Virus record (IMG/VR): IMGVR_UViG_3300009594_000003
Span: 21,652-85,651 of that record
From: a virus
Length of the DNA stretch: 64,000 nt
Strand: one strand, 5' to 3'
Below are positions 525 to 61,065 of this stretch, piece by piece. Position numbers and translations under genes: made by a program. The number at the start of each line of letters is the position of its first letter. Position 1 is the first letter of the stretch. The notes beneath the pieces are model-generated. The model saw only the letters and a program-made list of their open reading frames with translations. It was not told where the DNA came from and searched no databases.

Positions 525-1475
525 ATGGCGGTCTTCAGCTTCGGGAGCGATCCCGAATTCATGCTTTGGAAAAATGGCATTTTCTACAGTGCCATTAACA
601 TCGTGCCGGGCAGCAAAAAGGCCTGTTACGTTATAGACGGCTGCAACTTTTACTACGACAATGTGTTGGCAGAATGCACGATTCAGCCAGCGAAAACCAA
701 AAAAGAAACAGTCAAGAATATCCGCAAGTCTCTCACGTTGTACGCCAACTTGGTCAGGCCCTATTACCTCGTTCCCAGGGCTTCACACCGCTACGATTGG
801 AACCAGTTGAAGAGCAAAGAAGCACTAGAAGCCGGGTGCGATCCAGAATGGTGTGCCTATAGTCTGGAAGTAAAAAAGCCTGACAAGGTGTTTTTCCGCA
901 AGAACAACCTGCGGAGTGGCGGCGGACATATTCACCTTGGCTCAAAGACAATTATCAAAAAGCAGCGTGGGCTGATCTTCACCACTAGGATGCTCGATCT
1001 CTTCCTGGGCATTCCTAGCATCCTCCTAGACCACGATACCTCCTCACCAGAGCGTCGGAAACTCTACGGCCTTGCCGGTAGATTCCGCAAGCCAGACTAC
1101 GGTGTAGAGTATCGATCTATCGGTAACTTCTGGCTCGCTAGCCCAAAGTTGGTTGAGTTGGTCTATGACATCTGCGATTTCACCCTGGGGTTCATAGACG
1201 CCGACAAGCATCTAGAATTCTGGACTATTGACGAAGAGCGTCTGGCTTCAGATGACGCTTGGAATGATGAGAGCTTCAACCCGGCAGACTGCCACAAATG
1301 CCACGGTTATGATGTGGCAGCGTTGAGAGACGCCATCGATAATTCCAATAAAGCCAAAGCCAGGAAATTCATGGACTTCCTGAAACAACAGATGCCTTCC
1401 AAGCTCTATGAAGACATTTGCAGCCTTGCAGATCATCCTGATTTCGAGATGTACAAAGAATGGAGACTCAAATGA
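525..1475 (+). CDS. phage phiEco32-type COOH-NH2 ligase (type 2)
   Basis: GSDPEF, DNVLAE, GCDPE, RSGGGHIHLG, RRKLYGLAG, YGVEYRS motifs. Confidence 0.85.
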   Translation: MAVFSFGSDPEFMLWKNGIFYSAINIVPGSKKACYVIDGCNFYYDNVLAECTIQPAKTKKETVKNIRKSLTLYANLVRPYYLVPRASHRYDWNQLKSKEALEAGCDPEWCAYSLEVKKPDKVFFRKNNLRSGGGHIHLGSKTIIKKQRGLIFTTRMLDLFLGIPSILLDHDTSSPERRKLYGLAGRFRKPDYGVEYRSIGNFWLASPKLVELVYDICDFTLGFIDADKHLEFWTIDEERLASDDAWNDESFNPADCHKCHGYDVAALRDAIDNSNKAKARKFMDFLKQQMPSKLYEDICSLADHPDFEMYKEWRLK

Positions 1476-2104
1476 TTGAAATCTACCCGACCCTCATCAA
1501 TCCCACTCTCGCCAAGAAATGTATCATCTTCATGGCTGGCCGAGGCGGTACGACAAGAGGGCGGCATTTTGAACTCTACAAAGAGCAGCTAGAGAAAATG
1601 AAGGCGGAGAATGTGTTACTTGTCGGGGCTGCTGCGATCAAGGAATACTACCAACAGCCCAGGGGTCCACACGACCAAGCTGAAGCTATTCGTGGTCAAG
1701 GCAAAGCAGTAGGCCAGATTATGAATCTGGTTCTATCTATGGAACATGATTACGAAGTGAAAAGAGAGAACATCTGGTTGGCTGGCTTTTCAGCCGGGGC
1801 TGTAATGGCTGTGATGACGGCGGTTCAGGCGACAAAACACTTTGGCGGCGTCATCGCACACAACGGTGCCATACTAGAACCGAACAACATTCCCGAAGCC
1901 AATGGCATGAAGACACCGTTTGCATTGTTCCACACAAAGGACGACAGTGTATTCAAGTGGGACGAACGATATCTGCCAATGAAGAAGGCACTAATCGACA
2001 AGAAGTACAATGTGACTTGTTTCGAGACTAAAGAAGGCGGGCACACTATTTCCCAAGAACAAATAGAACAAGCTTGTTCGTTTATCTCCCGGCTACACGC
2101 ATAA
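1472..2104 (+). CDS. alpha/beta hydrolase (carboxylesterase/phospholipase-like)
   Basis: GFSAG nucleophile elbow, HTKDD, GGH. Confidence 0.8.
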   Translation: MIEIYPTLINPTLAKKCIIFMAGRGGTTRGRHFELYKEQLEKMKAENVLLVGAAAIKEYYQQPRGPHDQAEAIRGQGKAVGQIMNLVLSMEHDYEVKRENIWLAGFSAGAVMAVMTAVQATKHFGGVIAHNGAILEPNNIPEANGMKTPFALFHTKDDSVFKWDERYLPMKKALIDKKYNVTCFETKEGGHTISQEQIEQACSFISRLHA

Positions 2105-12107: not shown

Positions 12108-13481
12108 ATGAGTAAGCTGGTTGTAGAAGTGTGTCGTGTTGAAAAGATCGAAGATCACCCAAACGCCAATCGTATGAAGTTGGCGACAATCAAGGGTTGG
12201 AAGACCTGTGTACGGCATGACCCAGAAACAGGCTGGACGCAATTCAAACCGGGTGATTTCTGTGTGTATTTTCCGCCCGACGCCATTCTGCCGCCTGCAC
12301 TCGCCAACGACAGACTTGGGATCATGAAGTATCTCAAGGAACTGCCGAAAAACGAGCTAGGTGAACGCACGCCTGGAGGCAGAGTTGCAGCCACGAACTT
12401 GCGGGGATACCCCAGCTACGGTGTCATCATGAAGATTGATCCCAAGTGGGGCGATGACCCGAACTGGCCGGTCGGCACCGATCTAGCTGAACACTTCGGT
12501 GTCACCAAGTACGAACCGCCGTTGGACTGCACCGATGGAGACGCTGAAAAGCAATGCCCTCGCTTCTACGATTACACTTCCATCGAACACTACGGCAACT
12601 TCCCCGCTGCGTTCGATGCCGGTGAAGAAATTATTCTGACCGAAAAGGTCCACGGCAAGAACTGCCGAATGGGTCTGTGTCTGGACACAGATGAGAACTG
12701 CGTTCCGGGCTGGGTCTACATGTGTGGGTCGCACGACGTTCGCCGAAAGGAATGGTCTCCACAGAACCGCCGCTTCCAGGCTGCGGAGTTGATGGAGAGC
12801 ATGATCGTCAGCGAAAAGGCACCGCCACTCGGCACCATCTTCCTATACAACGGAAGCTGGTGGAAAGTAGAAGAATGCTACGAGCGTCCCGTCAAGTCGA
12901 TTCTGCTCGACGCCGAGGGCAAGCGGTACTTTGGGCCTGAAGAGATTCGGGCATACATCAAGACCGCTCGCTGCACGCAGGAAGGTGAGACGATCCTGCG
13001 GAAATCTGAATTCTGGGAGTTTCTAAACGACGGCGTAAAGGGCCTGCTGGAGTACATGCGGGACGAATATCCCTGGGATGGGAACAAGTTCAGCATCATC
13101 CTCTACGGCGAACTATACGGCAGTGGCGTTCAGGATATGACCTACGGTATGAGGACCAAGGGTTTCAGGGCCTTCGACCTTGCCTTGAACAACCTCTATC
13201 TGGATTTCGCCGTCAAGGTAGACCTGTTCAAGCGGTTCGGCATCGAGATGGTGCCGATTCTGTACCAAGGACCGTTTTCCCAGGAAGTGGTCGAAAAGCA
13301 CACCAGCGGCCCGACTACCCTCTGTGAACCATCAGCGATCAAGAGTGGTTTCAAGGGGCGGGAAGGCGTGGTGATCTTGCCGACCAAGGAACGGCTCAGT
13401 CCTGTGATCGGAAAACGCTGCTGCCTGAAATCAGTGTCTACCGATTACCTCGCCCGGTCTGGCGGTACTGATTTCCACTAG
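12108..13481 (+). CDS. ATP-dependent RNA ligase (DRB0094-like)
   Basis: IEDHPNAN N-terminal domain, motif I TEKVHG, YGELYG, FRAFD, REGVV, LKSVS..YL. Confidence 0.85.
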   Translation: MSKLVVEVCRVEKIEDHPNANRMKLATIKGWKTCVRHDPETGWTQFKPGDFCVYFPPDAILPPALANDRLGIMKYLKELPKNELGERTPGGRVAATNLRGYPSYGVIMKIDPKWGDDPNWPVGTDLAEHFGVTKYEPPLDCTDGDAEKQCPRFYDYTSIEHYGNFPAAFDAGEEIILTEKVHGKNCRMGLCLDTDENCVPGWVYMCGSHDVRRKEWSPQNRRFQAAELMESMIVSEKAPPLGTIFLYNGSWWKVEECYERPVKSILLDAEGKRYFGPEEIRAYIKTARCTQEGETILRKSEFWEFLNDGVKGLLEYMRDEYPWDGNKFSIILYGELYGSGVQDMTYGMRTKGFRAFDLALNNLYLDFAVKVDLFKRFGIEMVPILYQGPFSQEVVEKHTSGPTTLCEPSAIKSGFKGREGVVILPTKERLSPVIGKRCCLKSVSTDYLARSGGTDFH

Positions 13482-13497
13482 GATTTTCCCTGGTTTC

Positions 13498-13528
13498 GAG
13501 CGGGCCTGCCTCACGGCAGGCCCGCTCT
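13498..13528 (+). terminator. hairpin/terminator
   Basis: GAGCGGGCCTGCC-TCAC-GGCAGGCCCGCTC. Confidence 0.65.
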
Positions 13529-13547
13529 CTTGACACCTGAATTCAGG

Positions 13548-14210
13548 ATGTCTAGAATTGCGACGGAGGTTGGGCGAGGCGTTTATGCCGGGTCTTTCGA
13601 CCCTCCGACTCTGGGACACATATACGTCATCGACCAGACCGCACGGCTCTTTGACGAGTTGATCGTTGCCGTTGGCGACAACCCTGAAAAAAAGTTTTCT
13701 GAACGCAGCAGGATAGATATGCTGAAAGAGAGCATCCTGCTTTTGCAGCAACGTCTTCAAGGCGACCATCCCATCGAGAACATCCGAGTCGATCATTTCC
13801 GTAATCGGTTTCTCATTGACTACGCCAAAGAACAAAACGCAAAGTATATCATTCGAGGAATCCGCAACTCCCAGGATTTCGAGTTTGAGAAAGCAATGCG
13901 GTATCTCAATGCCGACCTCACGCCAGGGATAACAACCCTGTTCATTGTCCCTCCACGAGAGTTGGCTGAAATCAGTTCCAGTGTTGTGAAGGGGGTGTGT
14001 GGACCGGAGGGCTGGCAGCGTGTTGTCCAGTCTATGGTCCCACCCCCGGTCTGCTCAGCAAGTGCACCGTCAAAGACGTGGATGAGGAAGGCTAGCTCAC
14101 TTGTGAGCCGAAGCCCGATAACGAAGTTCTCGCCGTTCAGATCGGCGAGGACCACGCCGGGCCGGACGGTTTCACCCTCATCGGTCAGTGGGGTGATGAA
14201 CGAATCGTAG
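13548..14210 (+). CDS. coaD: pantetheine-phosphate adenylyltransferase, probably damaged at both ends
   Basis: YAGSFDPPTLGH, IIRGIR..DFEFE, ISSSVVK; homology appears to end at VPPPV (~14050). Confidence 0.8.
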   Translation: MSRIATEVGRGVYAGSFDPPTLGHIYVIDQTARLFDELIVAVGDNPEKKFSERSRIDMLKESILLLQQRLQGDHPIENIRVDHFRNRFLIDYAKEQNAKYIIRGIRNSQDFEFEKAMRYLNADLTPGITTLFIVPPRELAEISSSVVKGVCGPEGWQRVVQSMVPPPVCSASAPSKTWMRKASSLVSRSPITKFSPFRSARTTPGRTVSPSSVSGVMNES

Positions 14211-14381: not shown

Positions 14382-14416
14382 ATAAATGACGGCGTGGTTT
14401 CCACGCCGTCATTTAT
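14382..14416. terminator. hairpin
   Basis: ATAAATGACGGCGTGG-TTT-CCACGCCGTCATTTAT. Confidence 0.65.
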
Positions 14417-14431
14417 GTTTTTGGAGGTTGA

Positions 14432-15169
14432 ATGAAAGGTATTATTCTTGCAGGAGGTCTCGGCACACGCCTGCACCCTTTGACAAGGGTTACGAACAAG
14501 TGTTTGTTGCCGATCTACAACAAGCCCATGATATACTACCCGATTCAGAATCTAATCGATTCGGGTATCAACGACATTCTGCTCGTGTGTGGCGGTAATG
14601 CTGCCGGTGAATTCCTGAGAATCCTTGGGAATGGCGAAGAATTCGGCATCAAGCATCTACACTACACATATCAGAAGGAAGCGAGCGGCATTGCCCACGC
14701 TCTGGGATTGGCGAGAGAATTCTGTAACGGTCAGCCAATGACCGTAATGCTAGCAGACAACATTCTAGAGAACCCCGTTCGGGAACAAGTGCAGGAATTT
14801 TCGGCCAACCCTGTCGGAGCGAAAATCTTCCTCACCAAAGTTGCAAACCCATCTGCCTACGGCGTAGTTGAAGCTGATACCGAGGGGAATATCCTCAGTA
14901 TAGAAGAAAAACCGAAGTATCCAAAGTCGGACGAGATTGCAATTGGACTCTACATGTACGATAATACCGTCTGGGAGTTCATTGACCAGCTAAAGCCATC
15001 TGCTCGTGGCGAGCTAGAGATCACCGACTTGAACAACCACTTCCTCCGAAATGGCAGACTCAAGGCACATCGAATCAACGGATGGTGGGCTGATTGCGGA
15101 GAGAACTTCGACATGTATTTAGACGCTTCTAACAAAGCGAGGGAATTATGGCATAAGAAGCGACGGTAA
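14432..15169 (+). CDS. glucose-1-phosphate thymidylyltransferase-like (RmlA/SpsI family)
   Basis: GIILAGGLGTRLHPLT, KPMIYYP, EEKP, SARGELEITD. Confidence 0.9.
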   Translation: MKGIILAGGLGTRLHPLTRVTNKCLLPIYNKPMIYYPIQNLIDSGINDILLVCGGNAAGEFLRILGNGEEFGIKHLHYTYQKEASGIAHALGLAREFCNGQPMTVMLADNILENPVREQVQEFSANPVGAKIFLTKVANPSAYGVVEADTEGNILSIEEKPKYPKSDEIAIGLYMYDNTVWEFIDQLKPSARGELEITDLNNHFLRNGRLKAHRINGWWADCGENFDMYLDASNKARELWHKKRR

Positions 15170-15257
15170 AACCCAAAAAGGACTGGTAGGATTTAATGTT
15201 TCTAGGCATAATAGGCGTGCAAGTAGTTGTACTAGCCTATTTGCTATGGGTGTGATA

Positions 15258-15364
15258 TGTTGAAATCCGAAGCCTTGCAGATGTTGAATGAAAAAGTGTG
15301 TTCTTGTACGAAGTGCAATGAGCTAGCTCGTACAAGAACAAACCGTTTTTAGGGAAGGCAACCC
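15258..15364 (+). pseudogene. family-4 uracil-DNA glycosylase, 5' half
   Basis: LNEKVCSCTKCNELARTRT, frameshift, TVFREGNP. Confidence 0.7.
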
Positions 15365-16729
15365 TCGCTTCTCTAATTAACCGTCCTTCTTGGACGGTTT
15401 CTTCTTTTCTGGCTATACAACTCCCGCATTAGGCACTTCAAGCCATACCTCTCCCTCTCCGCACATCTTTTTCTCGGTCAAATAATGTAAGCAGTGTCGT
15501 TTACTAGAAGAAGGAAAACCGGAGAATATGACAACATGCGTTAAAATAATCAGGAAATCCAATGTTTCCGACCCGCTAGAACTGGTTAATCAAAACATGG
15601 TGATAGAAGATGGGTTGGAACATGGTAGGAGAAATAACCTTGAACGGCGTGCCTCGCTGGGATATGCTCGATGAGGCAAATAACCTGATTTCCAAATTAA
15701 AAACTACCAAGCCAAAATATGTTATTTACCGTGACCATGATAGAATAGGCTTCAAGAATCCCGCCGAAATCGGTTTCTTCATTACCTCCCTGAAACAACT
15801 GGATATGAAGATTATCACCGCCAACGACGAGCAGGTGGTCGATATGACCAACCTCGCTTCGACCATGCGGACGGTGCAAAACCAGTTAGCTTCATCAGCC
15901 GAGATTGAGAAGAAGGGATATAGGACACAAATTGCTCGCCGGAAGACTATCGAGAAGAAGTCTAGTCCTGGCAAGATGTGTGTCTATGACTATGACTGGA
16001 TAGTATATAACCGTGAAGGCACTTTCAAATATAAGGTCATCTACGAAGGTTACAAAAAATGCGAAGGACGGCACTGGACTGACCCACCGAAGAATACCAG
16101 AAGTCATGCCAATGCGGTGGAAAGAATATCCAGACGGCAAACGAGAAGCATATCACGACCAGTGGGTTCAAAATAGTCACAACTGGATATTGCTCACGTC
16201 CGTTCCCATGATGGAAAAGGGCGACCGGAAGACTGAGATTGTTAATGTTGAGCGTGCCAAAGTTGTGAAAGATATATTTGACTTGGCTGACACTCCTAGT
16301 TACAAAACTCCTCACGAAATTGCCTGCATCTTCAACAATAAGGGCATCAAGAGCATGAGTAGGAAGTGGGATGCCAAGACAATAAAGTGCATCTTGTCAA
16401 ACCCCATATACAAAGGGTATCCAGTCGATAATCAAACTTCAAAAGCAAAGACCGCTCGGTTGAATACTAATATAGTTACCGTGCCACCGACCAAGGAAGA
16501 ACGAGCAGCAATACGCATTGTAGATATTGCACAATGGGACCGAGTGAATAAATATCTGCGAGATAATCAGACAGGATATAAACATTTTCGCCGTGCTAAT
16601 CTCGGTGACTTTTGGGCAAAGTGCTTTTTGTTCTGCGGTAACTGCCAAGATATTTTTTACGTCGCCAATAGCACTAAATGGAAACCTTCCAAGAACTATC
16701 GCTGCGAGAAGTGTGGTGCCATAAAATCC
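15365..16729 (+). mobile_element. recombinase-only integrative element inserted in UDG
   Basis: bounded by CC dinucleotides; removing it restores [16 protein letters not shown] in frame. Confidence 0.7.
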
Positions 16730-16738
16730 CAATGCTAA
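15528..16738 (+). pseudogene. large serine recombinase, frameshifted twice
   Basis: IIRKS catalytic motif, DHDRIG, WDAKTIKCILSNPIYKG recombinase domain, LFCGNC...YRC Zn ribbon across three segments. Confidence 0.75.
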
Positions 16739-16835
16739 CGTCCTTTTTCTAGGTGAGGCTCCCGGTCAAAATGAAGACGGAACCGGAAGGCCCTTCGTCG
16801 GTAGGGCAGGTAGTTACTAGACGACATCATTTAAT
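16730..16835 (+). pseudogene. family-4 UDG, continuation (truncated)
   Basis: [27 protein letters not shown], frameshift, LLDDII. Confidence 0.8.
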
Positions 16836-16859
16836 CATCTGCTGGGGCGACCGAATCGA

Positions 16860-17600
16860 GGATGTAACCATACGCTGAAAACTCGTAGTGGATTGACCCG
16901 TACTGGCCTTGTGGCAAGGCTCTTATCAAGTCGGAGAATTATGTCCTCGTTCCTGATTACTTTTCTCCCGATGTTCGCTGACCCATTACAATCAGCATTG
17001 ATTACACGACCGTCACTGGAACGATAACGCCCACGACCCATGCGAGTACCAAAAAAACTCATGCTTCACACCAGCAACGTACTCTGGGAGCGGATTACGG
17101 TCAAAGAAACTGGCTTTGCTGGTGTAGAACTCCTCCGTGAAAATAACCTCAAGTTGCACGATAAACTTGGAAACATGGTGGAAGTAGTTTTCCAGTCGGA
17201 AGTACCATTTCTTACTTTCACGCTTGGTCTTGTGCCTGTTGAAATGCTTGTTGATGCTCTTGCAAATGCGACCGTATGGGAGAAGTCTGATCGGAAGTTA
17301 TCATAGCAAGGTTATTCAACCCAATGTCAATACAGTTGTTCGGGACAGCTTGTTCGTATTGTACGTCCACGATGAAGCCAAATCGCTTGGGTGTAATGAC
17401 CACTTATTTGTAGGCTCTGGTACTTTGGATACTGAAGCAGTCGTTGGTCGGCGTTATGGTGTTCGGTTTTTGCTTAACCTTGTTCTGTCCTCCTTTGATG
17501 GTTTCATTATAGAAGATGACCTGAGCCAGTTTGTCCTTGTAGTAGGGTGGCATGGGCATCTTGACGAACTTACTCTTGTCCTTTGACCACTTAAAGAAAG
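16860..17600 (-). mobile_element. tnpB: degraded IS200/IS605-family TnpB
   Basis: fragments IDIGLNNLA (RuvC-I) and INADCNGSANIGRK (RuvC-III) in broken frames. Confidence 0.75.
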
Positions 17601-17613
17601 TGGCAGAGCGAGC

Positions 17614-17641
17614 TTTACAACAGGTCGAGCGTGACTACAAT
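17614..17641 (+). promoter_or_regulatory. early-type promoter of the NAD cluster
   Basis: TTTACA-N16-TACAAT; AGGAG RBS downstream. Confidence 0.65.
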
Positions 17642-17685
17642 ACGGGTGTGGTCAGGACAACTCAACAAATAGGAGAGAATGAACC

Positions 17686-38107: not shown

Positions 38108-39200
38108 ATGAACAAACTGGTGAACATCAGCCAGGCAGCCGAGATGCTTGGCGTCTCCACCAAAATACTATGCCTATGGGATGGTGAAGGTAAGGTAGAG
38201 GCAGTTAGAACGGCAGACTTCGGGGTATACGAGCAGTCACGGTGTTACAATAGAATGAATGGACAGTGGGCAGAGTAAGACCTACGAGCAAGAGTTAGTT
38301 AATGACATGATTTCGCCTATGTCGTCCTTCTCCAGCAAGATTTACGGCAAGCATTCAGCCGAGAACCGCAAATGCCGTAAATTGGAAAAGTTAGCAGCGT
38401 TGAGACAGTTGCCGATGGGGGCGGCTGTGCCTGTAGATGTGGAAGAAATACATGAACCAACCGGCATACTGGAAACTGGACAGCAAGATCAAGGCGAGGC
38501 AGAAGAATGTGGCAACGTACCAGAAATTAACCAGGCGGAACTCATTACCTACTGACCGTGGCTACTGAACACTCTGCAACTACCAACCGCCCTACGAAAG
38601 CGGCACGAAGATTGTGCAACTTGAAGAACTTGGGCACTGGTTGGTGCTATGTATGCTCACCCTGACAAGTTCACTCATATTCCAATCGTGGATGAGTGGG
38701 TAGTGATTGCCGAAGAACTTGCTGCTAAGAGCGGTGGCGTTCTCCCTTACGCTCGCTGGTTGCAGGCAGAGAATGGATGAGGTTGCTAAAGAAGTAATAC
38801 AGCAACCAGATGTGAAAATGGTCGTAATGGAAGACTTGAAAAAGTTAAACCACAAGATCAAATTCAGACGCCGCCTGAGTAAAAATATGCGGCAGTCGCT
38901 CGGTACATGGGCGTATCGTTACTGGCTGAACCGGATACAAATGGCAACTGAGGATAACCGTGTTAGTCTTCGTCATGTTCCACCGGCATATACCAGTCAG
39001 CGATGCAGTGCATGTGGTCATATTGAGCGGAGAAACCGAAATGGTGAGAAGTTCTTGTGCAGGAAGTGTGCTACGCCTGCAATGCAGATGTGAATGCTGC
39101 CAAGAACATTGAGTTCCGGTGTACCAGCCGACCTTACGGTGCGGCTTCCAAACCGAGAAACAGGGATTTTTGTCTAAGGTAAGATTTTCCAAGTTTTGAA
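38108..39200 (+). mobile_element. degraded IS607-family element (tnpA + tnpB remnants)
   Basis: MerR-like ISQAAEMLGVS..L..WD.EGK, ELVNDM..MSSFSSKIYG; VVMEDL, PAYTSQRCSACG, NADVNAAKNI. Confidence 0.8.
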
Positions 39201-60522: not shown

Positions 60523-61065
60523 ATGATAAGACTAGATTTCGAGGAATACCTGTTCACCGAGAACAGAAACTACCTGGGCGAGAAGGTGGGAGACATCTTG
60601 ACATCCCTACAAGACCTTTCCCAGAACGGAAAGGCAATGGGTCAACGGCAAATGATGCGTCGTATGGAGGGAACTAGCGATCAGATTCGTAAGATTCTCC
60701 ACTCACGATGGCAGAAATCAAACGAGAAGTACCTACCTGTGCTTCAGAAAGTCGGGACTGCCCTGATGAATGTAGTTGACGGCGAAAGCCAATTCGAGCC
60801 GCTAGATGTGGTAAACGGGTCCATCTCGGAGCTAGAAGGCTTGCTTGGTAGAATGAAAGTACCAGTCAATACCCTTGCATCCGCCGAGCCGACGCCAGAA
60901 GAACCGCCAACCACCGCACCGCCAGAAGGCCAGCAAGATCAGGCCCAACAACCACAGCCCAATCCAAACACACAGCAACAACCACCGGCCCCCGATCCAA
61001 ATACTGCACCGCCAAACCCGAATGCGGCACCAGGACAACCGCCGTCCCAACCAGCACCAGCATAA
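60523..61065 (+). CDS. hypothetical protein with Pro/Gln-rich tail
   Basis: LDFEEYLFTE leader; TAGATA upstream. Confidence 0.65.
   Translation: MIRLDFEEYLFTENRNYLGEKVGDILTSLQDLSQNGKAMGQRQMMRRMEGTSDQIRKILHSRWQKSNEKYLPVLQKVGTALMNVVDGESQFEPLDVVNGSISELEGLLGRMKVPVNTLASAEPTPEEPPTTAPPEGQQDQAQQPQPNPNTQQQPPAPDPNTAPPNPNAAPGQPPSQPAPA

Follow-up and report, generated by a model that had tools for sequence, protein, structure and literature searches.

The stretch of DNA analyzed here, referred to throughout as the window, is 64,000 nucleotides long and corresponds to bases 21652-85651 of an 85,651-bp IMG/VR virus record (IMGVR_UViG_3300009594_000003). The record is rated 17% complete, and the window therefore represents a fragment of a very large phage. 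Our subject is a segment of the window in which a family-4 uracil-DNA glycosylase (UDG) gene is cut precisely at its Gly-Asn-Pro codons by a low-GC insert of 1365 bp, which holds the remains of a large serine recombinase (LSR) gene. Homologous loci are denoted by short handles. L001 (LR756511.1, a 595-kb uncultured phage) and L003 (a 135-kb IMG/VR contig) contain elements visible from end to end, L007 shows the left end only, and L009 (a 533-kb contig) has an uninterrupted UDG gene and thus represents the empty site. The L003 sequence also appears as L004 and L006. The features of the window locus, with the evidence for each, are the following:

15257-15361, plus strand: original 5′ part of the UDG gene, now displaced (N′ fragment, C-x-C-x2-C ... 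TVFREGN), located by tblastn with the L009 UDG.
15360-15361, plus strand: left copy of the proposed crossover dinucleotide AA, part of an Asn codon, placed by its invariance and by the centre of dyad symmetry.
15362-15387, plus strand: putative P′ arm (recombinase half-site), which provides the stop of the truncated UDG fragment (..RFSN, then stop) and is conserved in the window, L001, L003 and L007.
15379-15409, plus strand: terminator-like hairpin with a T-run, overlapping the outer P′ arm (terminator scan).
15480-15527, plus strand: remains of the recombinase upstream region, recognized from an alignment gap (columns 322-366) with which the blastn gaps agree.
15528-16724, plus strand: LSR pseudogene, residues 1-408 of about 690 (blastn, tblastn, Pfam Recombinase).
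16725-16726, plus strand: right copy of the AA core, at which recombinase codon 408 and the UDG body meet directly (junction listing).
16727-16831, plus strand: UDG body fragment (B′ arm onward), with a frameshift followed by LLDDII and a stop (Pfam UDG; tblastn, residues 53-81).
16838-17650, minus strand: decayed TnpB-like (IS200/IS605 OrfB-like) remnant in three frames (three-frame reading, tblastn).

The left junction reads ggcaacCCtcgc, with a CC dinucleotide at 15363-64, and the right junction reads aaaatCCcaatgct, with CC at 16728-29, which gives the spacing of 1365 bp. These sequences, coordinates and spacing had been put forward in an earlier note on this DNA, made from the sequence alone, and we could confirm them base for base. 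The 5′ fragment of the UDG gene includes the C-x-C-x2-C segment (the N-terminal Fe-S cysteines), which aligns with the UDG of L009. Its reading frame is broken near 15331-15345: the open reading frame (ORF) 15257-15352 closes on TAG, and ..TVFREGNP stands in a different frame. The fragment can be aligned with the intact N′ fragments of L001, L003 and L007. On the other side of the insert, Pfam UDG (PF03167) matches window positions 16728-16817 with an E-value of 1.7e-7, covering profile positions 6-33 of 141, that is, the GEAPG..ED..G.PF.G.AG motif block. Past GRAG there is just LLDDII, in a shifted frame. Across the record, the PF03167 search recovered profile positions 5-47 only, with a stop inside.

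How the two pieces relate to each other can be seen by comparison with L009. With the L009 UDG as a tblastn query, residues 15-45 map to 15248-15340, residues 42-54 to 15327-15365 in another frame, and residues 53-81 to 16725-16811. As residues 42-54 and 53-81 fall on the two sides of the insert, the pieces abut, with a two-residue overlap at N-P; in L009 itself there is no gap between them. A complete single-frame UDG domain is not present in the window, since the gene has two frameshifts in addition to the insert. Moreover, about 120 C-terminal UDG codons (L009 residues ~89-208) have no counterpart in the 85.6-kb record according to either PF03167 or tblastn searches. L009 came from a set of 71 viral loci encoding relatives of the nucleotidyltransferase that neighbors the UDG gene in the window. 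In the fetched flanks of these loci, a UDG was detectable with the L001 protein in one (L009) and the recombinase in none. The L009 nucleotidyltransferase is 70% identical to that of the window, and the UDG gene lies downstream of it, with one 161-aa ORF between the two.

The insert itself is dominated by the recombinase pseudogene. Its coding sequence is spread over three frames (from 15528 onward, 15610-16176 and 16013-16738), and the last of these ORFs crosses the right junction to end in ...CGAIKSQC. Pfam Recombinase (PF07508) matches window positions 16013-16735 with an E-value of 6.2e-12, above the curated cut-off. Relative to the L001 gene, to which the window is identical at 1204 of 1511 positions aligned by blastn, there is a 14-nt deletion after ~15606 and an 11-nt deletion after ~16110, both of which shift the frame. 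In tblastn the recombinase is covered in three pieces (residues 1-27, 14-200 and 204-409), and a search of the window's own record returns the same three. The R-x-S codons of the active site are kept (..IIRKSNVS.., in the ORF starting at 15528), with the frame lost after codon 27. All four cysteines of the zinc ribbon are also kept (CFLFCGNC ... CEKC); the Pfam Zn_ribbon_recom match to the window is marginal (E 0.27), and the fold of this domain finds support in the full-length Foldseek alignments described below. Upstream of the gene, about 45 nt are missing after 15488, and in L001, L003 and L007 the corresponding segment holds a TATAAT-type box. The hairpin found by the terminator scan has a stem of 8 pairs at 15379-15399, after which comes TCTTCTTTTC; it is also conserved in L001 and L007. 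The insert has neither cargo genes nor a replacement 5′ end for the UDG gene, both of which are found in its relatives (see below). The UDG and recombinase genes are both broken by frameshifts, as the earlier note had recognized.

The homology of the window recombinase ends at residues 408-410, right after the fourth zinc-ribbon cysteine. At the DNA level, the similarity to L001 stops abruptly at 16726, within what is a continuous ORF in the relatives, and recombinase residues 411-690 have no match anywhere in the 85.6-kb record. The length of the relatives is uniform. The L001 recombinase occupies a single open frame of 698 codons and has 684 residues when counted from a conserved MTTCVK start, and the L003 protein has 690. 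A large protein database yielded five clusters of close relatives (at least 72% identity), all of 682-703 residues. The 11 aligned family members span 682-800 residues and share invariant columns across the C-terminal third (e.g. H416, W422, G472 and Y549 of the first sequence). Taken together, the length of the relatives, the invariant C-terminal residues and the abrupt end of homology indicate that the window gene is truncated rather than naturally short. The ORF running across the right junction, which the earlier note had pointed out, is therefore the product of truncation and not of design, with homology ending at residue 408 of 690.

Sequence and modeling both identify this family as LSRs. 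Pfam Recombinase matches the L003 protein with an E-value of 1.9e-10, above the curated cut-off, and the Pfam Resolvase match is weak (E 0.0018, below the cut-off). R9 and S11 are invariant in the smaller family alignments and nearly invariant in an alignment of 76 sequences, where the consensus is Y-x-R-V-S; the zinc-ribbon residues C378, C381, C401 and C404 are nearly invariant in the same alignment. An exhaustive profile search over 1.84 billion representatives retrieved 154 proteins at E ≤ 1e-3, of which 16 reach E ≤ 1e-30. Searching PDB by sequence returned no chain at E ≤ 0.01, even with the family profile. A structural model was more informative. The AF2 model of the L003 protein built from the 76-sequence alignment has a pLDDT of 90.3 and a pTM of 0.73, and it was used in place of a model from a 6-sequence alignment, which was unusable (pLDDT 42.4). 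In Foldseek, full-length serine integrases aligned with the model over 650-730 columns at E-values of 1.5e-17 to 2.2e-13; phiC31, Bxb1 and an integrase-attL complex from 2026 are among them, and the LI integrase-DNA complex 4kis was matched as well. Further matches were to the catalytic domains of TP901-1 integrase (3bvp, TMt 0.73), Sin and gamma-delta resolvase. In the model, the zinc-ribbon strand ends at residue 408, and long helices occupy residues 409-577. Since the homology of the window copy ends at 408-410 and the predicted helices begin at 409, the truncation falls immediately ahead of the coiled-coil part. The coiled-coil motif is absent from the window copy and present in L001, L003, L005 (a further locus described below) and proteins P0001-P0005.

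What a full element looks like can be learned from L001 and L003. A blastn search against phage records gave one real match, between window positions 15291-16726 and LR756511.1 at 79.7% identity. Measured from core to core, the elements are 4371 bp (L001) and 4255 bp (L003) long, against 1365 bp in the window. The left junction has the same order in the window, L001, L003 and L007: displaced UDG 5′ fragment, 26-nt arm, hairpin, upstream region, recombinase. The displaced fragments end in G-N-P (G-N-A in L007), and the arm adds a stop (x-F-S-N-stop). The insertion point is identical at all four loci with a visible left junction. Thus the proposal of the earlier note that an LSR element interrupts the UDG gene at one fixed position is borne out by the same left junction at four loci and by the empty site in L009.

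Downstream of the recombinase, L001 and L003 both encode a D12-class adenine methylase (E 6e-63 and 3e-21, respectively), accompanied by a partner gene. The partner is MutH/Sau3AI-like in L001 (Pfam 4.5e-9; NCBIfam restrict_Sau3AI 2.9e-13), and in L003 it encodes an unrelated 221-aa protein without a family match. The cargo slots (L001 6376-8040, L003 11540-13175) resemble two different type II restriction-modification cassettes. The cargo is followed by a conserved 80-aa ORF (86% identical between the two), for which a search for relatives returned only itself, and then by a UDG gene with an N-terminus of its own. Compared with L009 and with the displaced fragments, this replacement N-terminus is longer by about 12 residues (NINYEEDCQLGK-type), which lie between the Cys motif and G-N-P. 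The similarity between L001 and L003 at the DNA level spans the recombinase and the segment comprising the ORF and the UDG start, but not the cargo, with about 76% nucleotide identity at the ends. The same holds at the level of the UDG protein, whose N part is 79% identical in L001 and L003, like the recombinase, whereas the body drops to 60% and then 43%. It follows that the replacement 5′ end is part of the element, whereas the UDG body is the phage's own. In L001 the UDG is an intact ORF of 216 residues in the integrated state, and L003 keeps the N part in frame. The notion of a UDG on/off switch, also advanced in the earlier note, fares poorly here, since both elements bring their own UDG 5′ end and the gene reads through when they are integrated.

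Further loci proved to be scarce. A locus search with close alignment found the L003 contig alone among viral contigs and three loci in metagenomes, one of which was the L003 sequence. With wider alignment, it returned one known locus and seven LSR loci that are distant and look unrelated, with 26-30% identity across the recombinase domain. A 24-nt hairpin/arm pattern had no match in viral contigs, and the query P0006 had none in genome contigs. L005, a 3.4-kb contig, encodes a 73%-identical recombinase, and its UDG body is upstream and divergent, with a start encoded by the P arm (DNDCQLKKFGNP). In this contig (positions 1-620) the UDG body lies about 130 bp from the recombinase upstream region. 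The interior of L005 seems to be inverted relative to the arms, as far as can be judged from a short contig.

The att sites of the family can be proposed from these junctions. To rebuild attP, we used as P the arm that precedes the downstream G-N-P, and as P′ the arm that follows the displaced fragment. The P arms of L001 and L003 match the window P′ arm when the latter is read as its reverse complement. In the rebuilt attP, a pseudo-palindrome is centred on AA, with 16 of 24 positions symmetric in L001 and 15 of 24 in L003; no other register exceeds 12. Shuffled arms reached the observed dyad score 0 (L001) and 8 (L003) times per 10,000. Moreover, AA is the sole dinucleotide invariant in all nine junction and empty-site sequences. 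The attP of phage A118, as described in PMC3783163, consists of two similar 25-bp half-sites and a central dinucleotide. The pseudo-palindrome around AA matches this pattern, and thus the proposed att sites fit an LSR.

Judging from these alignments, the crossover is probably at AA rather than at CC, the core suggested in the earlier note. With the axis placed on CC (+3), the dyad score is only 2-3 of 24, the attP axis lies 3 nt upstream on AA, and L007, which reads AACGC, has GC where CC would be needed. Restoration of the UDG frame does not discriminate, as excision at AA or at CC restores it alike. The joined ends of the window insert have a dyad score of 8 of 24, and so do not form an attP. 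We also considered the right joint of the window as a secondary att site; the sequence to its left matches the P arm at 5 of 27 positions (by eye), again with a dyad score of 8 of 24, and was judged not to be a look-alike.

The insert is foreign to the phage. Its GC content is 0.439, and the flanks have values of 0.529 and 0.535. When the window is compared with the L003 phage, the recombinase is 79% identical and 16 other stop-to-stop frame pairs (some of which overlap on two strands) are 31-70% identical. Across 9.5 kb of L001, the recombinase (82%) is the only item shared with the window. Judged by the flanking gene, L009 is the closest phage (70% identity to the window gene) and has no element, and the far more remote L003 phage (41%) has one. 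In addition, the displaced 5′ fragments are open frames at three of the four loci.

Based on these observations, we propose that window positions 15362-16724 are the decayed stump of a ~4.3-kb LSR-driven integrative island in a phage UDG gene, a reading to which we assign a probability of about 0.8. The attB of such an island would be the most conserved motif of huge-phage family-4 UDG genes, the G-N-P codons before GEAPG, with crossover at the AA of the Asn codon. In the left half of the intact island, the displaced UDG 5′ fragment and AA would be followed by the P′ arm with the terminator hairpin, a promoter and the ~690-aa LSR. The right half would hold the D12 methylase with its variable partner, the 80-aa ORF and the replacement UDG 5′ end, then AA and the UDG body. 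The last ~12 codons of the replacement 5′ end would themselves be the P arm. Because the island supplies this 5′ end, the phage would keep a readable UDG during integration. In the window, one deletion would have taken out all that lay between LSR codon 408 and the AA on the right. The recombinase would have been finished by the two small frameshifting deletions and the deletion in the promoter region, frameshifts would have arisen in both the displaced UDG 5′ fragment and the body of the gene, and the UDG 3′ part may have been lost beside a separate TnpB-like insertion.

The deletion joint deserves a comment of its own. AA is present on both partners, and the deletion ends exactly on the core, where a random end point would fall in well under 1% of cases. 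We favor an origin in which the recombinase made a double-strand break at attR that was repaired with one-sided loss. A crossover with a secondary site sharing only AA with the core would fit as well. A still broader reading is that these are active serine-integrase islands, parasites or partners that jump between huge phages. They would use the UDG motif as a universal landing pad, much like tRNA genes in bacteria, and swap restriction-modification cargo, with an attP arm translated as a glycosylase loop; the right boundary in the window would be the scar of a recombinase break that cost two-thirds of the island. As a whole, this combination is tentative, and we put it at slightly worse than even odds.

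Several observations weigh against the proposed history. Just two elements are visible from end to end, and only in L001 is the rebuilt UDG gene intact; that of L003 (13408-14020) is frameshifted near codon 90, with frames at 13408-13713 and 13619-14020. The layout of L005, which has neither the P′ arm and hairpin nor a replacement UDG N-terminus, departs from the proposed order. The presence of a full island in the ancestor of the window is something we infer. The symmetry of attB is weak (8-9 of 24). The exact end of the deletion on the core would be a coincidence unless the recombinase made it, and the left side of the joint bears no likeness to the P arm (8 of 24). No recombination directionality factor was found; by its position, the 80-aa ORF would be a candidate. 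Finally, no empty site, circle or excision product, for which the earlier note had proposed a search, turned up among the contigs (not reads) of one run, which is weak evidence because contigs drop rare forms.

The earlier note had described the insert as a naturally minimal, recombinase-only element with a protein of about 410 residues, once excisable as a UDG switch with a CC core. There are features that would suit such an element: the insert contains no other gene, joining its ends would place the stop of the ORF a few codons further on, directly before the terminator hairpin, and excision at either CC or AA would restore the UDG frame. We nevertheless consider it very unlikely. All 11 aligned family members have 682-800 residues and invariant C-terminal positions, and the DNA homology to L001 breaks at 16726 inside their continuous ORF. 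The part that would be dispensable is the coiled coil (helices 409-577), and according to PMC3783163, the coiled-coil motif is needed in the A118 system to synapse attP with attB. Furthermore, the joined ends show no dyad symmetry (8 of 24), and L007 has GC at the required CC. The earlier note itself had named homologous recombinases residing in larger elements as grounds for abandoning the idea, and both homologs with two visible ends (2 of 2) reside in such elements, of 4371 and 4255 bp, with methylase cargo. A related idea is that of a split integrase, in which insertion cuts the recombinase gene and strands its 3′ part at the opposite end of the element, until excision reunites the two. 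That the ORF runs into the right junction is what one would expect in that case, yet the left end consists of the 26-nt arm, hairpin and upstream region only, and the missing 282 codons are absent from all four left junctions. In addition, residues 411-690 are unmatched across the 85.6-kb record, and the gene is whole inside the integrated element in both L001 and L003, which makes this the least probable of the explanations considered.

A different possibility is that the arrangement is old and fixed, with a domesticated recombinase inherited vertically beside the UDG gene and merely decaying, not mobile, in the window. The same site and left-junction anatomy at four loci would agree with this, as would the tiny size of the family (five clusters at 72% identity or more; 16 of 1.84 billion representatives at E ≤ 1e-30) and the lack of an excision product among the contigs of one run. 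A fixed arrangement is, however, hard to reconcile with the empty L009 (flanking gene 70%) and the occupied, distant L003 (41%), or with an insert GC content 9 points under that of the flanks. Nor would it account for a recombinase conserved at 79-82%, above all 16 other shared frame pairs, or for cargo that differs between L001 and L003 while both ends are ~76% identical at the nucleotide level. Displaced 5′ fragments that are open at three of four loci are likewise expected of recent separate insertions. We therefore regard an old fixed arrangement as unlikely.

The split and the frameshifts might also stem from an assembly chimera or from sequencing errors, given the metagenomic source and a break of the Logan graph at a repeat (16946-16975). 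However, a 36,295-bp Logan contig from X1, a groundwater metagenome and the one run found to contain this DNA, possibly its source, is identical to the window over 14400-16973, at a depth of ~380 and with no variants or joints. The frameshifts are thus not the artefact of one assembler, with the reservation that the two assemblies may share source reads and are not fully independent. Moreover, the lesions are deletions of 11, 14 and ~45 nt relative to three relatives rather than homopolymer slips, and the junction anatomy is repeated in the unrelated assemblies L001, L003 and L007, so that an artefact is extremely improbable. The insert is a real, decayed member of an undescribed family of phage-targeting LSR islands. 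Nothing at its locus is likely to be functional or mobile today. For annotation, this means that the UDG, recombinase and TnpB-like genes are all pseudogenes, and that the insert is a remnant and not a minimal element.

The TnpB-like remnant at 16838-17650, which the earlier note described as replacing the UDG 3′ end, adjoins the truncated UDG gene. It lies outside the att-bounded insert and on the other strand, is absent from L001, L003 and L005, and its label is weakly supported. It represents a separate event, by which the UDG 3′ part was probably removed. Searches of 16838-17650 with Pfam, PHROG and NCBIfam found no significant family, including PF01385 and PF07282; NCBIfam reported only a Cas12b RuvC segment at an E-value of 0.015. 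In tblastn, one 76-aa piece matched 21 phage records; the 10 listed have E-values of 3e-7 to 1e-6, and 8 of these 10 are annotated as transposase. In one matched record, an overlapping upstream CDS has a Pfam OrfB_IS605 match, and the CDS under the match itself has no Pfam hit. A second piece of the remnant had no match. GIDLG-like and NAD..AA.NI-like stretches in the remnant may be TnpB motifs.

Other TnpB-related sequences are present in the record. PF07282 matches window positions 38929-39110 (record 60580-60761, plus strand, E 1.1e-10) and record positions 1291-1491 (minus strand, E 3.5e-26), and tblastx of the remnant against the window and these two loci found no similarity. An 85-bp stretch at the 3′ end of the remnant (window 16889-16975) recurs with 4-5 differences in two other X1 Logan contigs, also at a depth of ~380, and the de Bruijn graph breaks at 16946-16975. 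Recurrence at equal depth implies that the phage genome has further copies beyond the 85.6-kb record. As to the neighboring genes, the nucleotidyltransferase-like ORF of the window (13530-14210, GSFDPPTLGH) ends in a Ser/Pro-rich C-terminal tail that is apparently in the wrong frame, and the gene is possibly another frameshifted one. The 161-aa ORF between the nucleotidyltransferase and the intact UDG gene in L009 (6614-7099) is Cys-rich (CPC...CHC) and absent from the window; its pattern is reminiscent of ferredoxin-thioredoxin reductase.

A search of the literature, limited to titles and the beginnings of abstracts, found no account of a phage UDG gene that hosts a serine-recombinase element. 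Integrative islands are familiar from bacterial chromosomes; to our knowledge, site-specific islands in huge phages of the virulent type have hardly been described. If the islands are mobile, then huge phages would own a mobilome with a preferred landing site and exchangeable restriction-modification cargo, in which the host gene is spared. On the practical side, a recombinase so far from characterized integrases, together with a proposed att pair and AA core, would offer a basis for testing it as an orthogonal integrase.

The closest known counterparts are phage-type large serine integrases (A118/LI, phiC31, Bxb1; PDB 4kis, 9rah, 9iu2 and 9y66), which have the same domain order as the family: a catalytic R-x-S domain, a recombinase domain, a four-Cys zinc ribbon and a long coiled-coil insert. 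As in those systems, the proposed attP consists of pseudo-palindromic half-sites of ~25 bp about a 2-bp core. Unlike those integrases, the family is very remote in sequence, it resides in huge phages and not in bacterial chromosomes, and the element is a 4.3-kb island rather than a prophage. The window copy, in addition, has no coiled coil. At first sight, the side-by-side location of a serine recombinase and a TnpB-like gene in the window also resembles the IS607 family. We rejected an IS607 element: the recombinase is a ~690-aa LSR and not a small MerR-HTH TnpA, and the TnpB-like remnant is convergent and lies beyond the UDG fragment, outside the insert.

LSR elements that reside in genes are known from Bacillus, where skin (SpoIVCA, sigK) and SPbeta (SprA, spsM) inactivate their targets until programmed excision. 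The islands in question likewise interrupt a protein-coding gene whose frame would be restored by precise excision. In contrast to skin and SPbeta, the intact relatives carry a replacement 5′ end through which the gene is read, and their host is a phage. In SCC-type cassettes, the Ccr serine recombinases act at the 3′ end of rlmH/orfX. Islands that target tRNA genes, like the lambdoid phages found in icd, carry a copy of the end of their target gene. The phage islands are similar to these elements in being small recombinase islands with exchangeable cargo (as in SCC) and a conserved landing gene that is kept readable. They differ in that it is the 5′ end that is rebuilt, including the promoter-proximal codons, that a half-site is translated as a loop of ~12 residues (NINYEEDCQLGK-type), and that the target belongs to a phage. 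Thus, in terms of mechanism, this is an ordinary serine-integrase island, set apart by its huge-phage host, its UDG target, the rebuilt 5′ end and the translated att arm.

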